This document shows, piece by piece, positions 1-9,098 of a DNA stretch of 38,978 nucleotides (the stretch's first letter is position 1; each line of letters begins with the position of its first letter). The notes beneath the pieces were generated by a model, which had not been told where the DNA came from, made no database searches, and saw only the letters and a list, made by a program, of their open reading frames with translations. The DNA lies in the IMG/VR virus record IMGVR_UViG_2778261386_000007; one strand, written 5' to 3'. The translations under genes and the position numbers were made by a program. The DNA is from a virus. Taxonomy: Duplodnaviria; Heunggongvirae; Uroviricota; Caudoviricetes.

Positions 1-1254
1 ATGCTGGAACAAATGGGCATTGCCGCGAAGCAAGCCTCGTATAAATTAGCGCAACTCTCCAGCCGCGAAAAAAATCGCGTGCTGGAAAAAATCGCCGATG
101 AACTGGAAGCACAAAGCGAAATCATCCTCAACGCTAACGCCCAGGATGTTGCTGACGCGCGTGCCAATGGCCTTGGCGAAGCGATGCTTGACCGTCTGGC
201 ACTGACGCCCGCACGGCTGAAAGGCATTGCCGATGATGTGCGCCAGGTGTGTAACCTCGCCGATCCGGTGGGGCAGGTAATCGATGGCAGCGTACTGGAC
301 AGCGGCCTGCGTCTTGAGCGTCGTCGCGTGCCGCTGGGGGTGATTGGCGTGATTTATGAAGCGCGCCCGAACGTGACGGTTGATGTCGCTTCGCTGTGCC
401 TGAAAACCGGTAATGCGGTGATCCTGCGTGGTGGCAAAGAAACCTGTCGCACTAACGCGGCAACGGTGGCGGTGATTCAGGACGCCCTGAAATCCTGTGG
501 CTTACCGGCGGGTGCCGTGCAGGCGATTGATAATCCTGACCGTGCGCTGGTCAGTGAAATGCTGCGTATGGATAAATACATCGACATGCTGATCCCGCGT
601 GGTGGCGCTGGTTTGCATAAACTGTGCCGTGAACAGTCGACAATCCCGGTGATCACAGGTGGTATAGGCGTATGCCATATTTACGTTGATGAAAGTGTAG
701 AGATCGCTGAAGCATTAAAAGTGATCGTCAACGCGAAAACTCAGCGTCCGAGCACATGTAATACGGTTGAAACGTTGCTGGTGAATAAAAACATCGCCGA
801 TAGCTTCCTGCCCGCATTAAGCAAACAAATGGCGGAAAGCGGCGTGACATTACACGCAGATGCAGCTGCACTGGCGCAGTTGCAGGCAGGCCCTGCGAAG
901 GTGGTTGCTGTTAAAGCCGAAGAGTATGACGATGAGTTTCTGTCATTAGATTTGAACGTCAAAATCGTCAGCGATCTTGACGATGCCATCGCCCATATTC
1001 GTGAACACGGCACACAACACTCCGATGCGATCCTGACCCGCGATATGCGCAACGCCCAGCGTTTTGTTAACGAAGTGGATTCGTCCGCTGTTTACGTTAA
1101 CGCCTCTACGCGTTTTACCGACGGCGGCCAGTTTGGTCTGGGTGCGGAAGTGGCGGTAAGCACACAAAAACTCCACGCGCGTGGCCCAATGGGGCTGGAA
1201 GCACTGACCACTTACAAGTGGATCGGCATTGGTGATTACACCATTCGTGCGTAA
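1..1254 (+). CDS. proA: Gamma-glutamyl phosphate reductase (complete, 417 aa)
   Basis: Full-length ORF from ATG at 1 to TAA at 1252-1254; translation reads as enterobacterial ProA ([20 protein letters not shown] ... [23 protein letters not shown]). Recognised from memory, not searched. Confidence 0.95.
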
Positions 1255-1368
1255 ATAAAACCGGGTGATGCAAAAGTAGCCATTTGATTCACAAGGCCAT
1301 TGACGCATCGCCCGGTTAGTTTTAACCTTGTCCACCGTGATTCACGTTCGTGAACATGTCCTTTCAGG

Positions 1369-1444
1369 GCCGATATAGCTCAGTTGGTAGAGCAGCGCAT
1401 TCGTAATGCGAAGGTCGTAGGTTCGACTCCTATTATCGGCACCA
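1369..1444 (+). tRNA. thrW: tRNA-Thr (anticodon CGU), integration target for the prophage
   Basis: 76-nt sequence GCCGATATAGCTCAGTTGGTAGAGC...GGTTCGACTCCTATTATCGGCACCA with D-loop, anticodon loop cattCGTaatg, T-arm GGTTCGACTCC and encoded CCA. The integrase gene stop lies 14 nt downstream, as expected for attL at a tRNA 3' end. Confidence 0.92.
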
Positions 1445-1458
1445 TTTAAATCAATAAG

Positions 1459-2622
1459 TTACACATCATTAGTACCTTCCTTATTTTTTGACTGGGACAA
1501 ATTTGGGACCGATGGGTTCAGGATCGAGTCTATTTGCCGTGCGTGTTCGGTAAGGTGATTAGGTGCAAGGTGAGCATATCGACGAACCATTTCGATAGAC
1601 TCCCAGCCTCCCATTTCCTGTAACACTGACAACGGGACTCCGGCTTGAACCAGCCAACTTGCCCAGGTGTGTCTCAAGTCGTGAAATCTGAAATCATCAA
1701 TACCAGCCCGTCTCAGCGCCGCTTTCCAGGCTGTGTTTGCGTCATACCGCATCTTCCTTACTGTTGGCGCTTTCGTTCCGTCTGGTTTGGTACAGCTTTC
1801 CTTGTACACAAATACCCAACGGTGATGATTCCCGATTTGTTTTTTCAATACGCGACATGCAGTATCATTCAGCGCAACGCCAATTGCGCGGTTTGATTTA
1901 CTCTCTTCCGGGTTTATCCATGCCACCCGGCGCTGCATATCTATTTGTTGCCATTCAAGGTTGATGATGTTCGAGCGTCTTAAGCCTGTTGCCAGTGCAA
2001 ATTCAACAACAGACTTTAATGGCTCCGGACATTCATCAATCAGCCTTTGTGCTTCATGGGGCTCCAGCCAGCGGATCCGTTTATTCTTTGGTTGAGGCAC
2101 TTTAATAATTGGTGCCTTATCCAGCATTTTCCATTCACGCTCTGCGGCTCTTAGTAGGGCCTTTATAAATGAAAGATGCGTAGCCTTCGTTGCAACGGAC
2201 GCTGGTTTTGGCGTGTATTCTGGAACAGGTTTCCCTTTTTTTCTGCATGCTTCTGCCCTGAGTTTCCAGTTTTCCTCATGACGCCGGTTCGTCATTTTCT
2301 GCATTGCTGAATAAATTTTTGATTCAGTAATGTCTCTTAGTTGCATTCCTGCGAAATGTTGAAGCCAGAATCCGATCCGGCTTTTGTCATCGTCCAGTGA
2401 TTTTTTATGTGCTTTCTCTTCAAGCCACCTGACACACGCTTCCTCGAACGTTATATCAGGTATTTCACCAAGTTTGCTGACCCGCCATGCTTCAGCCTTT
2501 AGCTTGTCATGGAGTTCTGTCGCCTGCCTTTTGTCCTTTGTTCCAAGAGACTGTTTAAATCTTTTACCGTTCGGCAATGTGAAACTGGCGTACCATATTT
2601 CACCTCTGCGGAAGAGTGACAT
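1459..2622 (-). CDS. int: Tyrosine integrase, P22-like (387 aa)
   Basis: N-terminus [46 protein letters not shown] matches my memory of P22 Int; C-terminal catalytic region has the R...HDLRHTWAS...RRYAHL tyrosine-recombinase signature; sits directly beside thrW. Confidence 0.93.
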
Positions 2623-2849
2623 TTTCTTTCCTCTGTTATGCCATCACCCGCGCTCACCTGGACAGTATGCAGCGGAGACTGAAGAGCCGCAATGCAGGCT
2701 TGTCGTGTTGTGAGGTAAGGAGATTTATTCTTAGTGGGATCTTTGCGTGTTGCCTGAAGACGCCCTGTGCGTATCCAGTTAATGGCAGTCGGTCTGGATA
2801 TCTTGAGAAAATGACAGGCCTCATCGAGTGTGAGGCTGTATGGCTCCAT
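2499..2849 (-). CDS. xis: Excisionase (116 aa), overlapping the int start
   Basis: ATG at 2849-2847 ([32 protein letters not shown], an AlpA/Xis-type HTH); reading frame continues 116 codons, the length I recall for P22 Xis, and overlaps int by about 120 nt; start shares a nucleotide with the stop of the upstream gene. Confidence 0.7.
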
Positions 2850-3154
2850 TATTTCACCTCTTGCTGTGACATTGTTGAGAAATGGATACCAGCTCGTTGC
2901 TGCCAGACGATCCAACCGAGAGTCATATCCCATGCCATGTATTCGTTATCGCCGTTTTTTGCTCTCCGACGATCTACTAAGTCACCAAAACGCTTTTCCA
3001 TGAATAATTCATAAGCTTCGCGTTCATCTGGTTCTACTTCCAGAGATAGGAGTGCGATTTCATAAGCACGGCGCTCAATATCGTCTCGCACGTCAAGGCT
3101 GCTGATACGCTCTTTAATTTCTTTAATCAGTTCTTTGTCGGTAAAAGTGGTCAT
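2849..3154 (-). CDS. Hypothetical early-left protein (101 aa)
   Basis: ORF with ATG at 3154, translationally coupled to neighbours on both sides (stop/start overlaps); acidic helical protein, no family recognised. Confidence 0.5.
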   Translation of the reverse strand: MTTFTDKELIKEIKERISSLDVRDDIERRAYEIALLSLEVEPDEREAYELFMEKRFGDLVDRRRAKNGDNEYMAWDMTLGWIVWQQRAGIHFSTMSQQEVK

Positions 3155-3516
3155 TATGCTCCAGCCTCCGGTGCTTTTGGCATTACTGCCCAGTGAGTGA
3201 TATTGACGTTTTCAAGGTCCCCGACCTGAAATGTCCACTGCCATTCTCCGGTTTCTTTTTGTCCCCAGGTGTACCAGAGAGAACGCCAGCCAATTAGCCA
3301 GCCTTCTCCGTTAGCATCGAATAACAAAACACTTTCATTTGCTGGTGGCAGTTCAGTTGACACTGGTATTACTTTGTTTTCCTGTGCTGCACATTTAGCT
3401 TCAAGCGCATCGAATTTACGCACCAGGTATTCAGCATCCGTTTCATTCACTTTCAGATCTCGCGGTACACATCTCCCACGAAGAAACCCTTCCATTTCGA
3501 AAACATTCATGCGCAT
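3154..3516 (-). CDS. Hypothetical early-left protein (120 aa, Trp-rich C-terminus)
   Basis: ATG at 3516 preceded by GGAG 8 nt upstream; tryptophan-rich C-terminus (GEWQWTFQVGDLENVNITHWAV); possibly a DUF551-type phage protein, not confirmed. Confidence 0.5.
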   Translation of the reverse strand: MRMNVFEMEGFLRGRCVPRDLKVNETDAEYLVRKFDALEAKCAAQENKVIPVSTELPPANESVLLFDANGEGWLIGWRSLWYTWGQKETGEWQWTFQVGDLENVNITHWAVMPKAPEAGA

Positions 3517-4043
3517 TTGCGTAACTCCGATAATTCGTTAAAGCGTTCCATAAACATCCCGTAGGCATGGCCTGGAGCCAGTGGAATCACGTTGAACATC
3601 TCTGTTGCCGGGATACCTTCCAGCACAGGCCAGAAAGAGCCATCATCAAGCCCGAGATCGCGGCGTTCGGTTGCCAGCATAATGAGATCGGCATATTTCA
3701 CTGGCGTGCTCATAACAGGAGGTAACCCGTATTTCTCACGGATTACGGCGTCTATTTTTTCTTCCATCCGTTTATAGTCAGGAAGAAGTCGTTTCAGTGG
3801 TGCGGGGATGTCCTGGCAATATGCTTCTGTTGCATCATGCATTAAAGCTTCAAAAGCAAATTCCTGCGGTACCAGCTGGCTGCAAAGCACCGCATGTTGG
3901 GCGACACTGTAGAAGTGTGAAAGATGTCCTGCAAAGCGACAGATATTTGAAAGGGAAACCGCGATATCGTTAATAACGATGTCGTCTTTATTTATCCTGT
4001 CATAATAAAAATGCTTCCCGGAAAAAGTTTTAATAAATGACAT
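3507..4043 (-). CDS. HD-domain phosphohydrolase-like protein (178 aa from preferred ATG at 4043; ORF extends to GTG at 4070)
   Basis: Translation contains H...HD...D-type metal-binding pattern (FAGHLSHFYSVAQHAVL ... LMHDATEAY ... DLIMLATERRDL) reminiscent of YfbR/YfdR 5'-deoxynucleotidase-like HD hydrolases; ATG at 4043 has GGAG 8 nt upstream. Confidence 0.6.
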   Translation of the reverse strand: MSFIKTFSGKHFYYDRINKDDIVINDIAVSLSNICRFAGHLSHFYSVAQHAVLCSQLVPQEFAFEALMHDATEAYCQDIPAPLKRLLPDYKRMEEKIDAVIREKYGLPPVMSTPVKYADLIMLATERRDLGLDDGSFWPVLEGIPATEMFNVIPLAPGHAYGMFMERFNELSELRKCA

Positions 4044-4079
4044 TTTGTTCTCCACGTATATGCGCTGCACCGCGCTGAA

Positions 4080-4585
4080 TTCGGGTAAAAGGAAGCCCTC
4101 ACCGTCCGGCGATTATTGAGTCAATTACATTTCCATAAATGCCCCCGTAGGGGCGGTTAGTTTCTCCACAAAACAGAGAAGAACACCTGCGGTGGCAGCC
4201 GCCCGGATGGATTGGGTTATGAGCCCGTCGTCCGGTGATGCTCTTCTCTGTTTTGTAAAAATGACGGTACCAGCCGGAAGCAAGGGTACAAACTGGTACC
4301 GCCAGGACTACACACAGCATAAAGTTGTGGTGCCGGGTGCCTCCCGGTGCCTGGCGAAGGTTGCACACCAGGCGGGTGGGTATCCACAGAAGGTCGACTG
4401 TCAGCCTCAACCTTAACCCGCGTGCGCTGAGCCGCATTCACCACAACGCTAAGGATTCTCTCTGGTTGAAAATACTTAGCTGTTATGTGCCTGCTTTTAG
4501 CCACATCAGGCGAGGTGGACCTAGTTATTCCCCAACAACAAGGATTCGGTTAATCTGGTTATCCCCAACAACGCAAAAGGAAAAG
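4080..4585. other. GC-rich structured non-coding region (candidate RNA element) in the early-left operon
   Basis: No protein-like ORF in any frame (overlapping low-complexity Arg/Cys/Pro-rich ORFs in four frames); nested inverted repeats, e.g. ACAAAACAGAGAAGA ... TCTTCTCTGTTTTGT spanning about 4168-4260, GGTACCAG ... CTGGTACC about 4265-4299, GCCAGG ... CCTGGC about 4300-4354; tandem TTAT(T)CCCCAACAAC direct repeat at about 4525-4570. Confidence 0.3.
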
Positions 4586-4587
4586 AA

Positions 4588-5022
4588 ATGTCCGGTAATA
4601 TCTATACGCTGTACAAATCCCACTGTGAAAATGTTGGAAAGTATCGGGGCATTGAAATCAGTGGGGTAGTGTCATCAGTCGAAATAAGCAAAGTTGAATC
4701 AAGGGCAACATTACTTACTCTTTTGGACCTTGTCTTACATGAGCACCGGAAGAAATTCGGCACTCCCTATAATCAATTGAATGGGAAAAAGGCTCTGGTT
4801 CACCTTATTCTGATGAAGCATCACTGGATGCCAAAACAGATTAATGAGATGAAATTTGATGAACTTCTTCTTTCAATTCAGGATGAACTCACACTTGATA
4901 AAATAAGCGTAACCGCCCAGAAATTTTTAGATTATCGAGACTGGAGATCACAAATTCATCACTTTGATGATTTTGACGAAAATGAATGGGATCCTAATTT
5001 GTCTGCACAATATCTAAAGTAA
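4588..5022 (+). CDS. Hypothetical protein (144 aa), AT-rich moron gene oriented against the early-left operon
   Basis: ATG at 4588 with AAGGAAAAG upstream; visibly lower GC than flanking phage DNA; no TM segment, no family recognised; followed on the same strand by a strong terminator at 5260-5283. Confidence 0.6.
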   Translation: MSGNIYTLYKSHCENVGKYRGIEISGVVSSVEISKVESRATLLTLLDLVLHEHRKKFGTPYNQLNGKKALVHLILMKHHWMPKQINEMKFDELLLSIQDELTLDKISVTAQKFLDYRDWRSQIHHFDDFDENEWDPNLSAQYLK

Positions 5023-5200
5023 CATCCTGTGATAAAACCGTGATTTCCTGATCCAGTTTTTTTAAGGAGTCTATTGTTTCCTGTCGATAAGACAGCACTT
5101 CACGAAGCTGGTTTATAGCTGCCAGCTTCTTTGTCATCCACTCATAAATTTCCTCATCTGTGTAGCCAGGCGCGACGATTTTGGGTTCTGTTTTGTGCAT
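4994..5200 (-). CDS. Small hypothetical protein (68 aa), first gene downstream of the putative PL region
   Basis: ATG at 5200 with perfect GAGGAG 7 nt upstream (minus-strand TTGAGGAGATGTGAAATG); occupies the position of N in lambda-type maps but has no arginine-rich motif; 3' end overlaps the convergent 144-aa gene by 29 nt. Confidence 0.45.
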   Translation of the reverse strand: MHKTEPKIVAPGYTDEEIYEWMTKKLAAINQLREVLSYRQETIDSLKKLDQEITVLSQDVTLDIVQTN

Positions 5201-5259
5201 TTCACATCTCCTCAAGTTATCAGTTACTTGTTGATGGGGACCAGATTGTTAAAGAGCTA

Positions 5260-5283
5260 AGCGTCCTGTAGGGCGCTTTTTTG
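5260..5283 (+). terminator. Rho-independent terminator (plus strand)
   Basis: AGCGTCC-TGTA-GGGCGCT hairpin (7 bp including one G-U wobble) followed by TTTTTTG. Confidence 0.6.
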
Positions 5284-5359
5284 TTGCTAACGAATCATCC
5301 TGGACTTCATATGCCCCAGGCGGCTACTTCGTGGGCGTCCTGCCTGTTCGTTGTTTCGC

Positions 5360-5400
5360 TTGGGTACATTATGTATCTCAAAGGTACATTGTCAAGTATA
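5360..5400. promoter_or_regulatory. Candidate OL operator cluster downstream of cI
   Basis: Two GGTACATT motifs 20 bp apart (tgGGTACATTatgtatc and aaGGTACATTgtcaagtat) sharing the GTAC core of the OR palindromes. Confidence 0.35.
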
Positions 5401-5434
5401 AAAAAACCTGCCGAAGCAGGTTCATAAACATTGA

Positions 5435-6109
5435 TTAGGCTTTGATTTTGTATCTTCTTGGTTTTCCTGAGAAAATCACTGTACCAATTATAGAGCAATT
5501 ACCGTTGATCTTAATGTAAGGCTCAGGCCAGTTTGGGTTTAACGCTTTGAGATAACGCTGTGTCCCATCTTCTATCAACCTTTTGAAGGTGGTTTCGCCT
5601 GTATCGTGCATCAATGCAATAACGTCGTCACCGTGGCAGGCAGGTACTTCAGGATCGACAAAAATCATGTCTCCCGGGCGGTACTCATCAATCATTGAAT
5701 CACCTATCACCCGCAAGATATAAGTCATTTCCCCACAGGGTACAGGGCAGGGATACGTTTCTGCTGTGCTCAAATCAACCTCAGAATATCCAACTTCTTT
5801 CCATGCTCCGGCCTGTACCCATGATATGACAGGGACTAATGTGATTTGTTTATTAGTGATTGAAACATCAGGTTTTTTTGTGATGTTCGTTGTCTGGTGT
5901 TCTTGATCGAGCCATCCGACAGGCAGGTCGAAACATTTTTCGATGTGTCGTGCCATGCTGTCACCGATATTTTTAGTAGCACCATCTCCCATAAACCTGC
6001 TGGTCTGGGTTGGCTCGCGATCAATCATAGTGGCAAAGGAAGAATTCCCGCCAACACCATCTCTCAGTTTTCTGGCGTTAGACCGCCGGATGTCATGGAT
6101 TGTTTTCAT
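5435..6109 (-). CDS. CI-type prophage repressor (HTH N-domain plus S24 LexA-like autopeptidase C-domain, 224 aa)
   Basis: C-terminal region ILRVIGDSMIDEYRPGDMIFVD ... LIEDGTQRYLKALNPNWPE contains the Ser (GDSM) and Lys (FKRL) of S24 peptidases; ATG at 6109 with no SD, consistent with a leaderless PRM-type transcript; divergent from cro. Confidence 0.88.
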   Translation of the reverse strand: MKTIHDIRRSNARKLRDGVGGNSSFATMIDREPTQTSRFMGDGATKNIGDSMARHIEKCFDLPVGWLDQEHQTTNITKKPDVSITNKQITLVPVISWVQAGAWKEVGYSEVDLSTAETYPCPVPCGEMTYILRVIGDSMIDEYRPGDMIFVDPEVPACHGDDVIALMHDTGETTFKRLIEDGTQRYLKALNPNWPEPYIKINGNCSIIGTVIFSGKPRRYKIKA

Positions 6110-6199
6110 AACGAAATTAAAACCCTTGTACCGTTAAGGTACAAGTATCTTGAAGGTTCATTTCAATCATGTAATATGTACACCGGAGGTACATATTGT
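6110..6199. promoter_or_regulatory. OR-type operator/promoter region between cI and cro
   Basis: Perfect palindrome CTTGTACC-GTTAA-GGTACAAG at 6125-6145 and ATATGTAC-ACCGGAG-GTACATAT at 6174-6196, the latter overlapping the cro SD GGAGG. Confidence 0.6.
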
Positions 6200-6400
6200 A
6201 TGAAAGCGTATTGGGACTCTTTAACCAAAGAACAGCAGGGCGAGTTGGCCGGAAAAGTTGGCTCAACACCTGGCTACTTACGGCTGGTTTTCAATGGCTA
6301 TAAAAAAGCCAGTTTTGTGCTGGCTAAAAAACTTGAGCAATGCACGTCAGGTGCAATTACGAAATCTGACTTAAGACCGGATATCTATCCGAAAGATTAG
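6200..6400 (+). CDS. Cro-like HTH regulator (66 aa)
   Basis: ATG at 6200 with GGAGG SD; small basic HTH protein (MKAYWDSLTKEQQGELAGKVGSTPGYLRLVFNG) divergent from the repressor; resembles YdaS/DUF1019-type Cro proteins. Confidence 0.78.
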   Translation: MKAYWDSLTKEQQGELAGKVGSTPGYLRLVFNGYKKASFVLAKKLEQCTSGAITKSDLRPDIYPKD

Positions 6401-6431
6401 CAGAACACTTTCAATTTTTAACCACAGAACG

Positions 6432-6995
6432 ATGAGGCTAACCGTGGGTAAGCATCACTGGAAAATAGAAAAACAGCCTGAGTGGTACGTGAAAGCTGTC
6501 AGAAAAACTATCGCGGCGTTGCCGGGTGGTTACGCTGAAGCGGCTGACTGGCTCGATGTAACAGAAAACGCTTTATTCAACCGCCTTCGTGCAGATGGCG
6601 ATCAGATTTTCCCGCTGGGATGGGCAATGGTTTTACAGCGTGCTGGTGGCACTCACTTCATTGCTGATGCTGTGGCGCAGTCTGCAAATGGCGTCTTTGT
6701 GTCTCTTCCTGACGTCGAGGATGTGGACAACGCCGATATCAACCAACGCCTGCTGGAAGTCATTGAACAGATCGGCAGTTATTCAAAACAGATTCGTTCA
6801 GCAATTGAAGACGGTGTAGTGGAACCGCATGAGAAGACAGCAATTAACGATGAGCTGTACCTCTCAATTTCGAAGCTGCAGGAGCATGCAGCACTGGTCT
6901 ACAAAATCTTTTGCGTTTCAGAAAGTAGTGACGCCCGCGAGTGTGCAGCTCCGGGCGCCGTGGCGTGTCGTGACTGTGGAGAAACTAACGCATGA
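6432..6995 (+). CDS. Putative regulatory protein (CII/YdaT-like, 187 aa)
   Basis: First gene after cro; family assignment from positional analogy and weak recollection of YdaT-like proteins; start codon uncertain. Confidence 0.45.
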
Positions 6996-7330
6996 ACAGT
7001 TTAACAACACACTACCGTCGCTCGCAACTGATTGCGCTTCCTGTACCGGGTGGAAAAGCGAAGGTGGAGTATTGCTATGCAGTAAATGTACTAGGTGACA
7101 GGGAAATTGTAACCCACAGCTTTGCAGAGTGGGCTGTGGGTGATTTCAACCGGCAGAAGGAGACAGTCCTTTGCGACAAGTTAACCGCTGGTTCAAAGAT
7201 CACTACGGAGTGCCCGTCAGAGTCATTCGTTGGGAGCCGGAAACACAACGGGTTATCTACCTCCGTGAAGGCTATGAGCATGAGTGCTTCAGCCCGCTCG
7301 AACAGTTTCGTTGTAAATTCAGGGAAATAG
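6992..7330 (+). CDS. Hypothetical protein (112 aa); C-terminal half may be mis-framed
   Basis: ATG overlaps the upstream stop (ATGA coupling); the N-terminal half looks protein-like, the C-terminal part is low-complexity while an alternative frame 7171-7350 looks more protein-like. Confidence 0.35.
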
Positions 7331-7350
7331 AGGTCGGTCATGAGCACTAA
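7171..7350 (+). CDS. Alternative-frame small ORF (about 59 aa, TTG start) ending inside the start of the replication gene
   Basis: AGGAG 9 nt upstream of TTG at 7171; translation [59 protein letters not shown] looks like a folded small phage protein; stop TAA at 7348-7350. Confidence 0.3.
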
Positions 7351-8281
7351 ATTAACCGGCTATGTATGGGATGGTTGCGCTGCGTCAGGCATGAAATTAT
7401 CCAGCGTGGCAATTATGGCCCGCCTGGCTGATTTCAGTAATGACGAAGGTGTGTGCTGGCCATCAATTGAAACCATTGCCCGTCAGATTGGCGCGGGGAT
7501 GAGTACCGTCAGAACGGCTATCGCACGGCTGGAAGCAGAAGGCTGGTTAACGCGTAAGGCGCGTCGCCAGGGTAACCGCAATGCGTCGAATGTTTATCAG
7601 CTTAACGTTGCGAAGCTTCAGGCAGCGGCATTTTCTCAACTGTCAGATTCTGACCCGTCAAAATCTGACGCATCAAAATCTGACCCGTCAAAATTTGATG
7701 CGTCGAAATCTGGCAAAAAAGCGGGTTTTCACCCGTCAGAATCTGGCGGGGATCCGTCAGTAAAATCAAAACATGATCCGTCAGATAAAAAAACTTCTCG
7801 TCCGGACGCTTCGCAACCGGACACGCAGACGGCTGAACAGGAGTTTTTAACTCGCCATCCTGATGCGGTTGTATTCAGCCCTAAAAAGCGCCAGTGGGGA
7901 ACGCAGGATGATTTGACCTGCGCACAGTGGCTCTGGAAAAAAATCATCGCCCTGTACGAGCAGGCCGCCGAATGTGACGGCGAGGTGGTTCGTCCCAAAG
8001 AACCGAACTGGACAGCCTGGGCAAACGAAATTCGCCTGATGTGTGTGCAGGATGGTCGTACTCACAAACAAATCTGCGAGATGTACAGCCGCGTCAGCCG
8101 CGATCCGTTCTGGTGCCGTAACGTGCTCAGCCCGTCGAAGCTGCGGGAAAAATGGGATGAGCTTTCCCTGCGCTTATCGCCGTCCGTCAGCACGTACACA
8201 GAAAAACGCGAAGACCCGTACTTCAAAGCCAGTTACGACAACGTGGACTACAGCCAGATCCCGGCAGGATTCAGGGGGTGA
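7340..8281 (+). CDS. Replication initiation protein (N-terminal winged-helix Rep domain, repeat linker, DnaT-like C-terminal domain; 313 aa)
   Basis: N-terminus [51 protein letters not shown] is typical of phage/plasmid replication-initiator HTH domains; central SDSDPSKSDASKSDPSKFDASKSG repeats encoded by 15-bp DNA repeats; position right of cro/cII as for lambda O. Confidence 0.75.
   Translation: MSTKLTGYVWDGCAASGMKLSSVAIMARLADFSNDEGVCWPSIETIARQIGAGMSTVRTAIARLEAEGWLTRKARRQGNRNASNVYQLNVAKLQAAAFSQLSDSDPSKSDASKSDPSKFDASKSGKKAGFHPSESGGDPSVKSKHDPSDKKTSRPDASQPDTQTAEQEFLTRHPDAVVFSPKKRQWGTQDDLTCAQWLWKKIIALYEQAAECDGEVVRPKEPNWTAWANEIRLMCVQDGRTHKQICEMYSRVSRDPFWCRNVLSPSKLREKWDELSLRLSPSVSTYTEKREDPYFKASYDNVDYSQIPAGFRG
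7644..7775 (+). repeat. Iteron-like 15-bp tandem repeats inside the replication gene (candidate ori)
   Basis: TCTGACCCGTCAAAA / TCTGACGCATCAAAA / TCTGACCCGTCAAAA / TTTGATGCGTCGAAA at 7649-7708, followed by further CCGTCAG copies and an A-rich tract. Confidence 0.5.
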
Positions 8282-8772
8282 TCATGAGTCTTTTGAATGA
8301 AGTTCAGAAATACATTGAAGCCCATCCGGGGTGTACTTCCGGAGACATTGCGGATGCTTTTGCAGGTTACTCACGGCAGCGCGTTCTGCAGTCAGCAAGC
8401 AAGTTACGTCAGAGTGGGCGTGTGGCTCACCGTTGTGAAGGGGATACACGCAGACATTTCCCGCGCCTGACTGAGAGAGCGCAGGAGGCGGAACCGCAAC
8501 CAGTTCGTGAAACCAGACCTGTGCGCAATTTCTATGTCAGCACTAACGACCCGCGGGAGATTTTGTGCCTGACCCGCCAGGCTGAAGAACTGGAGTCCAG
8601 GGGCTTATACCGTCGTGCTGCAACGGTGTGGATGGCGGCATTCCGTGAAAGCCACTCCCAGCCAGAACGAAACAATTTTCTGGCGCGTCGTGAGCAGTGT
8701 TTACGGAAAAGCAGCAAGCGCGCTGTATCGAGTGATGAGTGGTATCTGTCAGGGAATTACGTGGGGGCGTAA
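8278..8772 (+). CDS. Putative transcriptional regulator with PerC-like C-terminal domain (164 aa)
   Basis: C-terminal segment QAEELESRGLYRRAATVWMAAFRESHSQPERNNFLARREQC resembles PerC/Pch-family regulators as I recall them; N-terminal part looks like a winged helix. Confidence 0.45.
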   Translation: MIMSLLNEVQKYIEAHPGCTSGDIADAFAGYSRQRVLQSASKLRQSGRVAHRCEGDTRRHFPRLTERAQEAEPQPVRETRPVRNFYVSTNDPREILCLTRQAEELESRGLYRRAATVWMAAFRESHSQPERNNFLARREQCLRKSSKRAVSSDEWYLSGNYVGA

Positions 8773-9098
8773 TGACGACGTTAACTCAATGCCAGCAGCA
8801 GGTGCTGGATATGCTGATTTCTTACCAGAAAGAACGTGGCTTCCCGCCAACCAATCAGGAGGTGGCAACCATGCTGGGATATCGTTCGGTGAATGCAGCG
8901 GTGGAGCATCTTCGCGCACTGGAGAAAAAAGGCGTCATCACGATAAAGCGTGGCGTGGCCCGGGGGATAACGCTTCATACCGCGGTGAAGGACGACGACA
9001 GCGAGGCGGTCGGGATTATCCGCTCACTGCTTGCCGGTGAGGAAAACGCCAGGCTGCGTGCAGCCCACTGGTTACATGAGAGGGGCCTGAAAGTATGA
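8772..9098 (+). CDS. LexA-N-terminal-domain-like DNA-binding protein (108 aa)
   Basis: ATG at 8772 overlapping upstream stop; MTTLTQCQQQVLDMLISYQKERGFPPTNQEVATMLGYRSVNAAVEHLRALEKKGVI matches the LexA DNA-binding domain pattern; no peptidase domain. Confidence 0.5.
   Translation: MTTLTQCQQQVLDMLISYQKERGFPPTNQEVATMLGYRSVNAAVEHLRALEKKGVITIKRGVARGITLHTAVKDDDSEAVGIIRSLLAGEENARLRAAHWLHERGLKV

Follow-up and report, generated by a model that had tools for sequence, protein, structure and literature searches.

The sequence considered here is the 38,978-nucleotide virus record IMGVR_UViG_2778261386_000007 of IMG/VR (hereafter the window), and the element under study is a stretch of some 500 bp, at positions 4080–4585, in the early-left part of a lambdoid prophage. 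The initial annotation of this stretch had described it as GC-rich, highly structured and lacking a protein-like open reading frame (ORF), and that observation holds for positions 4141–4572. The functional strand is the minus (leftward) strand, since the scores of a model made for the second part of the element, the U-tract of a terminator and the orientation of an Rfam match all agree. On that strand, positions 4141–4511 probably make up a composite noncoding RNA (ncRNA) locus, consisting of a trans-acting small RNA (sRNA) of the STnc100/PasD type (module 1) and an excised tRNA-mimic RNA (module 2, named here the Y element), and a discrete structured RNA of about 190–260 nt with an end near 4257 is predicted. 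Neither the strand, nor the family, nor the two-module anatomy had been identified in the initial annotation.

The GC fraction at 4200–4500 is 0.55–0.575, compared to 0.35–0.47 in the flanks, and when both strands were folded against shuffled sequences the minus strand gave z = −4.98 and the plus strand z = −2.69, in keeping with the description of the region as GC-rich and highly structured. Five ORFs of at least 40 amino acids (aa) overlap 4099–4669 on both strands, the longest being 112 aa (4099–4437, minus), and the reading frame is not retained in homologues, among which an intact conserved protein gene was looked for and none was found. No NCBIfam family was returned for the 112-aa ORF or for YmfH of the K-12 prophage e14 (just these two were scanned, and Pfam was not run). 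The 15-bp stem seen earlier consists of perfect 15-mers, ACAAAACAGAGAAGA and TCTTCTCTGTTTTGT, with 59 nt between them, inside 25-nt arms at 4168–4192 and 4232–4256, while a second inverted repeat has its arms at 4262–4273 and 4293–4304 and contains GGTACCAG / CTGGTACC. The hexamers GCCAGG and CCTGGC, which had been proposed as a further stem, are both present but are not each other's partners in the conserved fold, where CCTGGC belongs to strand B′ of a pseudoknot whose partner is 4366–4372. The folding, the compensatory changes found among homologues in the stems of both modules, and the lack of a conserved ORF all support the earlier view that this is a structured RNA rather than a protein gene.

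The family of module 1 was recognized through a permissive E-value scan of Rfam, in which STnc100 (RF02076) gave a full-length match on the minus strand at 4477–4255 (42.3 bits, E = 1.2e-7 over 901 nt); weak matches to MIR1094, Hairpin ribozyme, ftsZ-DE, PhotoRC-I and STnc310 in that scan were treated as noise. A model of the core made in this study (R1) scores 74 bits here, the sole copy in the window. Both parts of the STnc100 signature are present, the 5′ (U/G)GGUGAAU at 4447–4434 and the 3′ 22-mer CACCGGGAGGCACCCGGCACCA, the latter being found exactly in more than 120 IMG/VR contigs (a lower bound) that fall into 30 clusters and share little else by BLAST. Comparison of the clusters gives a common fold, beginning with a closing helix P1 of (A/G)UGGUG with CACCA(U/C), lengthened by covarying pairs and followed by AAU, and a hairpin, P2, whose loop is U-N-N-G-C and which contains a bulged base. 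In an H-type pseudoknot, the strand after P2 (A) then pairs with the loop (A′) of the penultimate hairpin (B/B′), and the last hairpin, P5, abuts the 3′ strand of P1 without a spacer, before a linker and a Rho-independent terminator.

Each of these helices is supported by compensatory changes. Across 36 representatives, 95.5% of the cells are paired, compared to 39–51% with slid partners; one P1 pair is AU in 17 and GC in 17, and three P2 pairs change on both sides, with CG becoming GC in the window type (GCGGC-UCAGC-GC(A)CGC, compared to the canonical CCCCC-UGUGC-GG(A)GGG). Because the MAFFT alignment of this region was inconsistent, a script was used to parse the pseudoknot, which can be placed in 78 of the 82 unique sequences, each time in one fixed position, with 35 strand combinations for A/A′, 39 for B/B′, and a mean of 12 pairs against 2.3 in shuffled sequences. 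The 22-mer was the search key, so P5 could not vary in that set; in members retrieved through the Y element it reads GGUGG AGGCA CCACC, with three pairs swapped and GGAGGCACC constant. The window copy has compensating helices of its own, in P1 (GUUGUGGUG/CACCACAAC), P2 (GCGGC/GC(A)CGC) and the pseudoknot (A, AAGGUUG/CAACCUU; B, CCUGGUG/CGCCAGG). By sequence and structure, module 1 belongs to the STnc100/PasD family, as a divergent member whose structure is intact, and of the suggestions made earlier an independent ncRNA fits it best. The knotted, nearly invariant core suggests recognition by a protein or other macromolecule rather than simple seed pairing. The fold described here takes the structural definition of the family beyond Rfam, to a closing P1, P2, an H-type pseudoknot, P5 stacked on P1 and a constant GGAGGCACC; the pseudoknot, defined in this analysis, is missing from the RF02076 consensus structure.

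Module 1 is followed by an intrinsic terminator with a stem of 11–14 bp and five U residues. The terminator structure and its U-tract (5–7 U) are kept, on unrelated stem sequences, in ST64B, Klebsiella Kp4866-6, phage Flotzy and about 20 species, and this conservation gives the transcript its leftward polarity and its predicted 3′ end near 4257. Pairing of the linker (UGUGUGU) with the 5′ arm of the Y stem was considered and rejected, as the linker motif is lost in species where the arm changes. In Stx2c and mEp460-type phages and in contig L129, the terminator and the Y element are retained, but the upstream core has no P5, with CACCGGUCACCA in place of the 22-mer, and R1 gives it only 26 bits.

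The Y element begins within the U-tract of the terminator and forms a three-way junction, of which a 96-nt version alone folds at z = −6.83. Arm 1 has a recurrent C-A mismatch in its 7-bp stem and a conserved internal loop (AC / AAUC), while arm 2 varies from 14 to 50 nt among homologues. The tip of arm 1, CGGGCUCAUAACCC, is identical over 14 nt to positions 28–41 of the Escherichia coli initiator tRNA, carrying a 7-nt loop, CUCAUAA, with a CAU anticodon triplet on an initiator-type GGG/CCC stem. The initiator tRNA sequence was confirmed against 5,426 genomes (100% identity, four tRNA-Met copies per listed genome). Across 27 diverse sequences, 93.8% of the cells of the Y element are paired, compared to 37–54% with slid partners, and ten pairs change on both sides, for example one in the long stem that is GC in 14 and CG in 13. 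The element differs from a tRNA in having no cloverleaf, with neither a D arm nor a T arm, and in having the 20-bp stem, without a CCA in the window copy, where the acceptor stem would be.

With a model of the Y element (R2), the minus strand reaches 122 bits and the plus strand 39.6, and the element shows 56 G-U pairs against 25 A-C cells. Both observations argue against a plus-strand element, such as a leader or promoter-operator of the neighboring 144-aa gene, or a DNA site (a recombination boundary or an att-like sequence), and the polarity of the terminator agrees with them. Such an element is very unlikely, despite two direct repeats lying 15–60 bp upstream of the 144-aa gene and mosaic breakpoints of homologues near 4518 and, for E. 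coli homologues, near 4572, and it could include only the repeats at 4524–4572. The earlier proposal of a leader for this gene fails in particular because the gene is on the plus strand and divergent, and because the RNA block is found without it in e14, ST64B, SfII and many species. The TTAT(T) repeat noted earlier is present as GTTAT(T)CCCCAACAAC, in two imperfect direct copies about 33 bp apart from start to start, but not as a head-to-tail tandem array, and Tandem Repeats Finder reported no tandem array at the repeats. Enterobacter (L234) has the same repeats ahead of its RNA block, and Mixta (L242) a degenerate form of them; the repeats coincide with the mosaic breakpoints and could be an operator, a promoter or a recombination linker.

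In a pattern scan with one genome per species, the Y element gave 25 matches, two of which are likely spurious or contaminant records; nearly all were in Enterobacterales, and about 20 enterobacterial species were represented, from Escherichia, Shigella, Citrobacter, Enterobacter, Kosakonia, Leclercia, Klebsiella, Raoultella, Phytobacter, Pseudescherichia, Pseudocitrobacter, Buttiauxella, Mixta, Erwinia and Pantoea. BLAST with the Y part also returned opposite-strand matches adjoining annotated tRNAs in Klebsiella phages, where, downstream of Q, tRNA-Asn and tRNA-Arg are followed at a distance of 6 nt by an unannotated 70-nt element (Form II, the window type being Form I). Form II reads GGCCUGA-CC-[arm 1]-GGG-[hairpin]-AA-CAGGCC-ACCA, with (A/G)CCA in nine of ten unique versions, so that the NCCA which the window element lacks is found only in these relatives. 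The ends of Form II resemble phage tRNA-Met(CAT), and it shares the GGCC... / ...GGCCACCA ends and the array position of lambdoid tRNA genes (ileZ-like tRNA-Met(CAT)-Arg-Arg arrays). Neither Form I (4168–4256) nor Form II was recognized by ARAGORN or by any Rfam family, the tRNA model included. One phage contig (L205) carries both, Form I at about 5829–6148 with an STnc100-like core upstream and Form II in a tRNA array at about 14628, which indicates that the two forms are not simply alternatives. In the late region of Pantoea phage PA-1, arm 1 closely precedes an STnc100-like 5′ end.

The presence of the Y element in two such "packagings" and across about 20 enterobacterial species is what would be expected of a functional small RNA. 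No earlier description of such a tRNA-like or decoy element turned up in the literature collection searched, and the element is absent from Rfam 15; it is apparently an undescribed tRNA-derived RNA. Stable RNAs in the tRNA cluster of T4 and viral tRNA-like structures are examples of tRNA-derived folds retained outside decoding. The non-translating pseudo-tRNA tRNA-Other of Bacillus cereus is likewise described as a tRNA-derived fold kept for a non-decoding role (PMC3399842). All of these differ from the Y element in sequence, host and architecture. Directly after the Y stem there is a conserved GGAGAAAC(U)AAC motif (4156–4167) that includes a GGAG resembling a Shine-Dalgarno (SD) sequence, with no start codon at SD distance. 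A leader peptide starting from GUG or AUG at the end of the Y stem was rejected by eye, having no SD sequence and inconsistent frames and lengths.

The long stem could also be only an RNase III processing or retroregulation site of the lambda sib or T7 R type, with the tRNA-like tip a functionless relic. A near-perfect 20-bp stem kept by compensatory changes, in an intercistronic position of an early operon, is what such a site would look like, but the reading is quite unlikely given that the tip of arm 1, including the unpaired bases of its internal loop, is the best conserved part (partly an effect of how homologues were retrieved), that the same head sits on a wholly different basal stem (6 bp and NCCA) in tRNA arrays, and that L205 carries both forms.

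STnc100 is a prophage-borne sRNA of Salmonella and E. coli. Outside the window, its canonical copies lie 50–250 nt downstream of phage tRNA-Met(CAT)-Arg-Arg arrays and co-oriented with them in the loci compared, and these members have promoter-like sites of their own, a terminator at the end and a convergent terminator opposite. Eleven copies are transcribed in O157:H7 strain EDL933, one of them verified by Northern blot (PMC5331693), and there is also a copy 75 nt downstream of stx2 (PMC12370729). PasD1 and PasD2 of enteropathogenic E. coli (EPEC) depend on Hfq for stability, and Hfq RIL-seq links them to many mRNAs; Pas sRNAs are 80–240 nt long (PMC8550237). Shared ancestry of PasD1/2 and STnc100 was recently proposed in a preprint that makes no mention of the pseudoknot, e14 or ymfH (bioRxiv 10.64898/2026.05.13.724894). 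The window copy resembles STnc100 in its 5′ GGUGAAU, invariant 3′ 22-mer, P1, P2, P5, terminator hairpin and prophage location, and PasD1/2, by their published description, in being structured prophage sRNAs of similar size. It differs in carrying other, compensating sequences throughout P2, the pseudoknot and the linker, in having no obvious promoter of its own, and in lying in the early-left region, from the cI side to int, instead of the late region with Q, the tRNA array, stx or lpxR and the lysis genes; PasD lies near Q and lpxR, and the Hfq findings concern the EPEC copies only. No Y element was found by R2 near canonical STnc100 loci; its association with STnc100 is confined to the early-left subtype. 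Some prophages (contigs L018, L035, L049 and L069, and also L074, L011 and L058) have two STnc100 copies, which in some cases are in direct orientation with a distance of exactly 484 bp, other pairs being 267, 922 and 4027 bp apart, and all lie just downstream of a tRNA-Met-Arg-Arg array.

In the composite locus proposed here, module 1 would end at the terminator and act in trans, as may be expected because its relatives are expressed in lysogens and PasD is Hfq-dependent with many mRNA partners. Transcripts reading through the terminator would carry module 2, whose 20-bp stem, present and covarying, is a plausible substrate for RNase III; cleavage there would release a tRNA-sized head. In the Klebsiella phages the same head might be released by tRNA-processing enzymes, since there it is part of a tRNA array and carries an acceptor-like stem with NCCA. 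Once released, the head could act as a mimic or decoy of the CAU-anticodon tRNA arm. The fuller proposal, that the Y element is an initiator-type anticodon-arm mimic acting as a decoy or titrator after release by RNase III or tRNA enzymes, and that the STnc100 core belongs to the same tRNA-directed toolkit, is unlikely as it stands. Candidate factors for such a decoy are enteric VapC-type nucleases of the initiator-tRNA anticodon loop, methionyl-tRNA synthetase (MetRS), TilS, and initiation factor 3 (IF3) with the 30S P site; VapC of the Shigella plasmid pINV cleaves tRNA-fMet, and the enteric VapC type is carried by Shigella and Salmonella hosts. The distribution of the Y element makes this tRNA-mimicry or anti-defense hypothesis directly testable, and the co-localization of phage tRNAs, a tRNA-like RNA and STnc100 hints at a shared translation- or tRNA-directed function of the lambdoid accessory region.

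Several points weigh against two trans-acting RNAs. The RF02076 score lies below the Rfam gathering score of 47, which is why neither a default Rfam scan nor the Prokaryotic Genome Annotation Pipeline (PGAP) calls the element, and a scan of the whole window at the gathering threshold returned thrW only. The U-tract in the window is of only five U, and a sigma-70 scan gave no convincing site directly upstream of the core, only a promoter-like site at 5395–5368, so expression of the core may rely on read-through from that site or on an unrecognized promoter. Transcription of the window copy itself is deduced from sequence features, the expressed members being other copies; the RNase III and decoy steps are conjecture, and the sequence conservation may partly reflect recent exchange among phages rather than selection. 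In comparisons anchored on the Y element, moreover, other species vary in the core segment flanked by GUUGUGG and CCACAAC, where they have different, partly STnc100-like inserts or nothing at all (L234, L242), while a unit made up of linker, terminator, Y element, GGAGAAAC motif and small hairpin stays constant and mostly precedes a yfdP-like gene. A cis-acting leader would account for a variable core with a constant unit no less well than a trans-acting sRNA would.

Such cis control of the leftward operon is possible, though somewhat unlikely, and the earlier suggestion of a processing or antitermination element on the leftward transcript remains in this form a rival for the terminator and long-stem part. 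Here a nut-, put- or riboswitch-like core would let the terminator at 4303–4257 be read through, and the long stem would direct the processing of the yfd-xis-int message or act on its stability. The antitermination RNAs lambda nut and HK022 put, and the RNase III sites lambda sib and those of T7, are known structured RNAs of early operons or intercistronic regions, and the window locus resembles them as an early-operon structured RNA upstream of a terminator, with an intercistronic long stem. The terminator lies inside an operon whose distal genes (yfdR/S/T, xis and int) need leftward transcription, the constant unit stands directly before the SD sequence and ATG of the yfdP-like gene in most species, and the layout, a P1-closed pseudoknotted core and then a terminator, is like that of an aptamer. 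Many relatives among L229–L256 also read AGUGCUCU(C/U)UUC just 5′ of P1, a sequence that resembles boxA (UGCUCUUU) and is a lead only. In others of them the equivalent GAGUGCGCUUCC is the 3′ arm of a 10-bp hairpin 5′ of GUUGUGG, and the window has neither form.

Unlike nut and put, however, the window has neither a boxA-like motif nor boxB, and no N-like arginine-rich protein is evident. Canonical members, with promoter-like sites, a terminator and a convergent terminator of their own, have nothing downstream to regulate, and the family is transcribed in uninduced lysogenic EDL933 cultures; the head of module 2, for its part, is also a free-standing tRNA-like gene in tRNA arrays. Two trans-acting RNAs are favored because the canonical members are free-standing and expressed in lysogens, and because the Y head is a tRNA-array gene.

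A decayed protein gene, that is, a ymfH-like pseudogene as called by PGAP, is extremely improbable. PGAP annotates 4125–4444 as a "frameshifted hypothetical protein" because e14 carries a 103-aa ymfH ORF at the homologous place (L002 3481–3792, homologous to window 4151–4518), and in SfIV an ORF of 226 aa starts here. In tblastn searches, however, nearly all homologues match YmfH or the 112-aa ORF in two or three separate frames, the longest run without a stop is anywhere from 22 to 117 aa and changes frame, and the substitutions are compensatory for RNA helices. The e14 ORF hangs on a 1-nt deletion, relative to the window, in the P5 loop, which more than 100 family members share unchanged. 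Given this deletion, a mismatch in the P5 stem and a Y arm whose CAU loop has been lost by mutation to UUAAUAA, e14 is a decayed copy in which the ymfH ORF is accidental. The PGAP pseudogene call and the K-12 e14 ymfH are thus both artefacts. The error is widespread: K-12 ymfH is an RNA locus and not a gene, and so are the loci in prophages of E. coli and Shigella that have been called "frameshifted hypothetical protein" in hundreds of instances. Overexpressed "ymfH" is among the prophage genes that trigger the retron-Sen2 toxin (bioRxiv 10.1101/2020.06.22.160242); if the ORF is spurious, triggering by the ymfH clone would be an effect of RNA, not of protein. The SfIV_34 annotation (226 aa; L001 2615–3295) starts in the STnc100-like core and crosses the Y element into the true downstream gene, whose start is likely ATGGCTAGC after the small hairpin.

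A retron msr/msd, or another ncRNA linked to a reverse transcriptase, might be suggested by the long inverted repeat around about 60 nt. No reverse transcriptase was found among the ORFs of positions 1–9000 (the rest of the window was not protein-screened) or among the genes of the identical E. coli locus, and the families of the element occur without reverse transcriptases in hundreds of prophages. This reading, already doubted in the initial annotation, is effectively refuted.

The features of the locus and its neighboring genes are given in Table 1.

Table 1. Features of the RNA locus and adjacent genes, in window coordinates.
Feature	Position	Strand	Basis or remark
ECs1072-family 144-aa gene, directed away from the RNA block	4588–5022	+	ORF list, annotation, family scan
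Direct repeat copy 1	4558–4572		Plus GTTATCCCCAACAAC, minus GUUGUUGGGGAUAAC; divergent intergenic region between RNA block and 144-aa gene
Direct repeat copy 2	4524–4539		Plus GTTATTCCCCAACAAC; resembles 5′ end of RNA core (GUUGUGGUGAAU)
Leader hairpin H0, GCCUG-AUGUGGCUAAAAG-CAGGC, then ACAUAAC	4489–4511	−	Kept in L234, L235, L242
Leader hairpin H1, GCUAAGUAUUUUC / GAGAAUCCUUAGC	4448–4480	−	Repeats, folding; directly 5′ of P1, within Rfam STnc100 match
STnc100/PasD-family core	4324–4447	−	Rfam RF02076, model R1, covariation
P1	4447–4439 with 4332–4324	−	Followed by AAU
P2, UCAGC loop, bulged A	4435–4420	−	
Pseudoknot A / A′	4414–4408 with 4363–4357	−	
Pseudoknot B / B′	4372–4366 with 4356–4350	−	
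Invariant 22-mer CACCGGGAGGCACCCGGCACCA	4349–4328	−	
P5, CCGGG AGGCA CCCGG	4347–4333	−	
Linker UUUAUGCUGUGUGUAGUCCU	4304–4323	−	GUAGUCUUGG-like motif retained across species
Intrinsic terminator, stem GGCGGUACCAG / CUGGUACCGUC, then A-UUUUU	4257–4303	−	Repeats, folding z = −4.36
Y element, three-way junction	4168–4256	−	Covariation, model R2
Y stem, 20 bp	4256–4237 with 4187–4168	−	Includes 15-mer stem of the initial annotation
Y arm 1: 7-bp stem, internal loop, GGG/CCC, CUCAUAA (4228–4212)	4235–4203	−	
Y arm 2, variable	4202–4189	−	
Conserved single-stranded GGAGAAACUAAC after Y stem	4156–4167	−	Comparison of homologues
Small GC hairpin GCCCCUACGGGGGC	4141–4154	−	In relatives, hairpin here, then SD and ATG of yfdP-like gene
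yfdR-like 5′-deoxynucleotidase (HD), next gene leftward	3507–4043	−	ORF list and annotation of identical locus

The query is 100% identical along its length to E. coli LZSFT34. The window begins in proA and tRNA-Thr (thrW, 1369–1444), the only tRNA gene reported by ARAGORN in the window, and continues with a lambdoid prophage in the order integrase, xis-like, yfdT/S/R-like genes, RNA region, 144-aa ECs1072-family gene, cI, cro and replication genes. The cI is of the LexA type (ymfK-like; 5435–6109, minus). Close relatives are Shigella phages SfII, SfIV and SfV and K-12 e14, with Salmonella ST64B more distant, and the prophage is of the e14/SfV/ST64B lambdoid type, its RNA locus lying between the control region on the cI side and the yfd-xis-int genes. 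The genes yfdP and yfdQ are absent here, so that yfdR comes next. Immediately below the cI terminator (5423–5404, minus) is a strong leftward promoter-like site, TTGACA-16-CATAAT (5395–5368, minus), which agrees with the consensus at 11 of 12 positions and is likely pL. The plus-strand terminator of the 144-aa gene (5259–5278) is antisense to a 73-aa leftward ORF (4994–5215), which points to converging leftward and rightward transcription in this part of the prophage.

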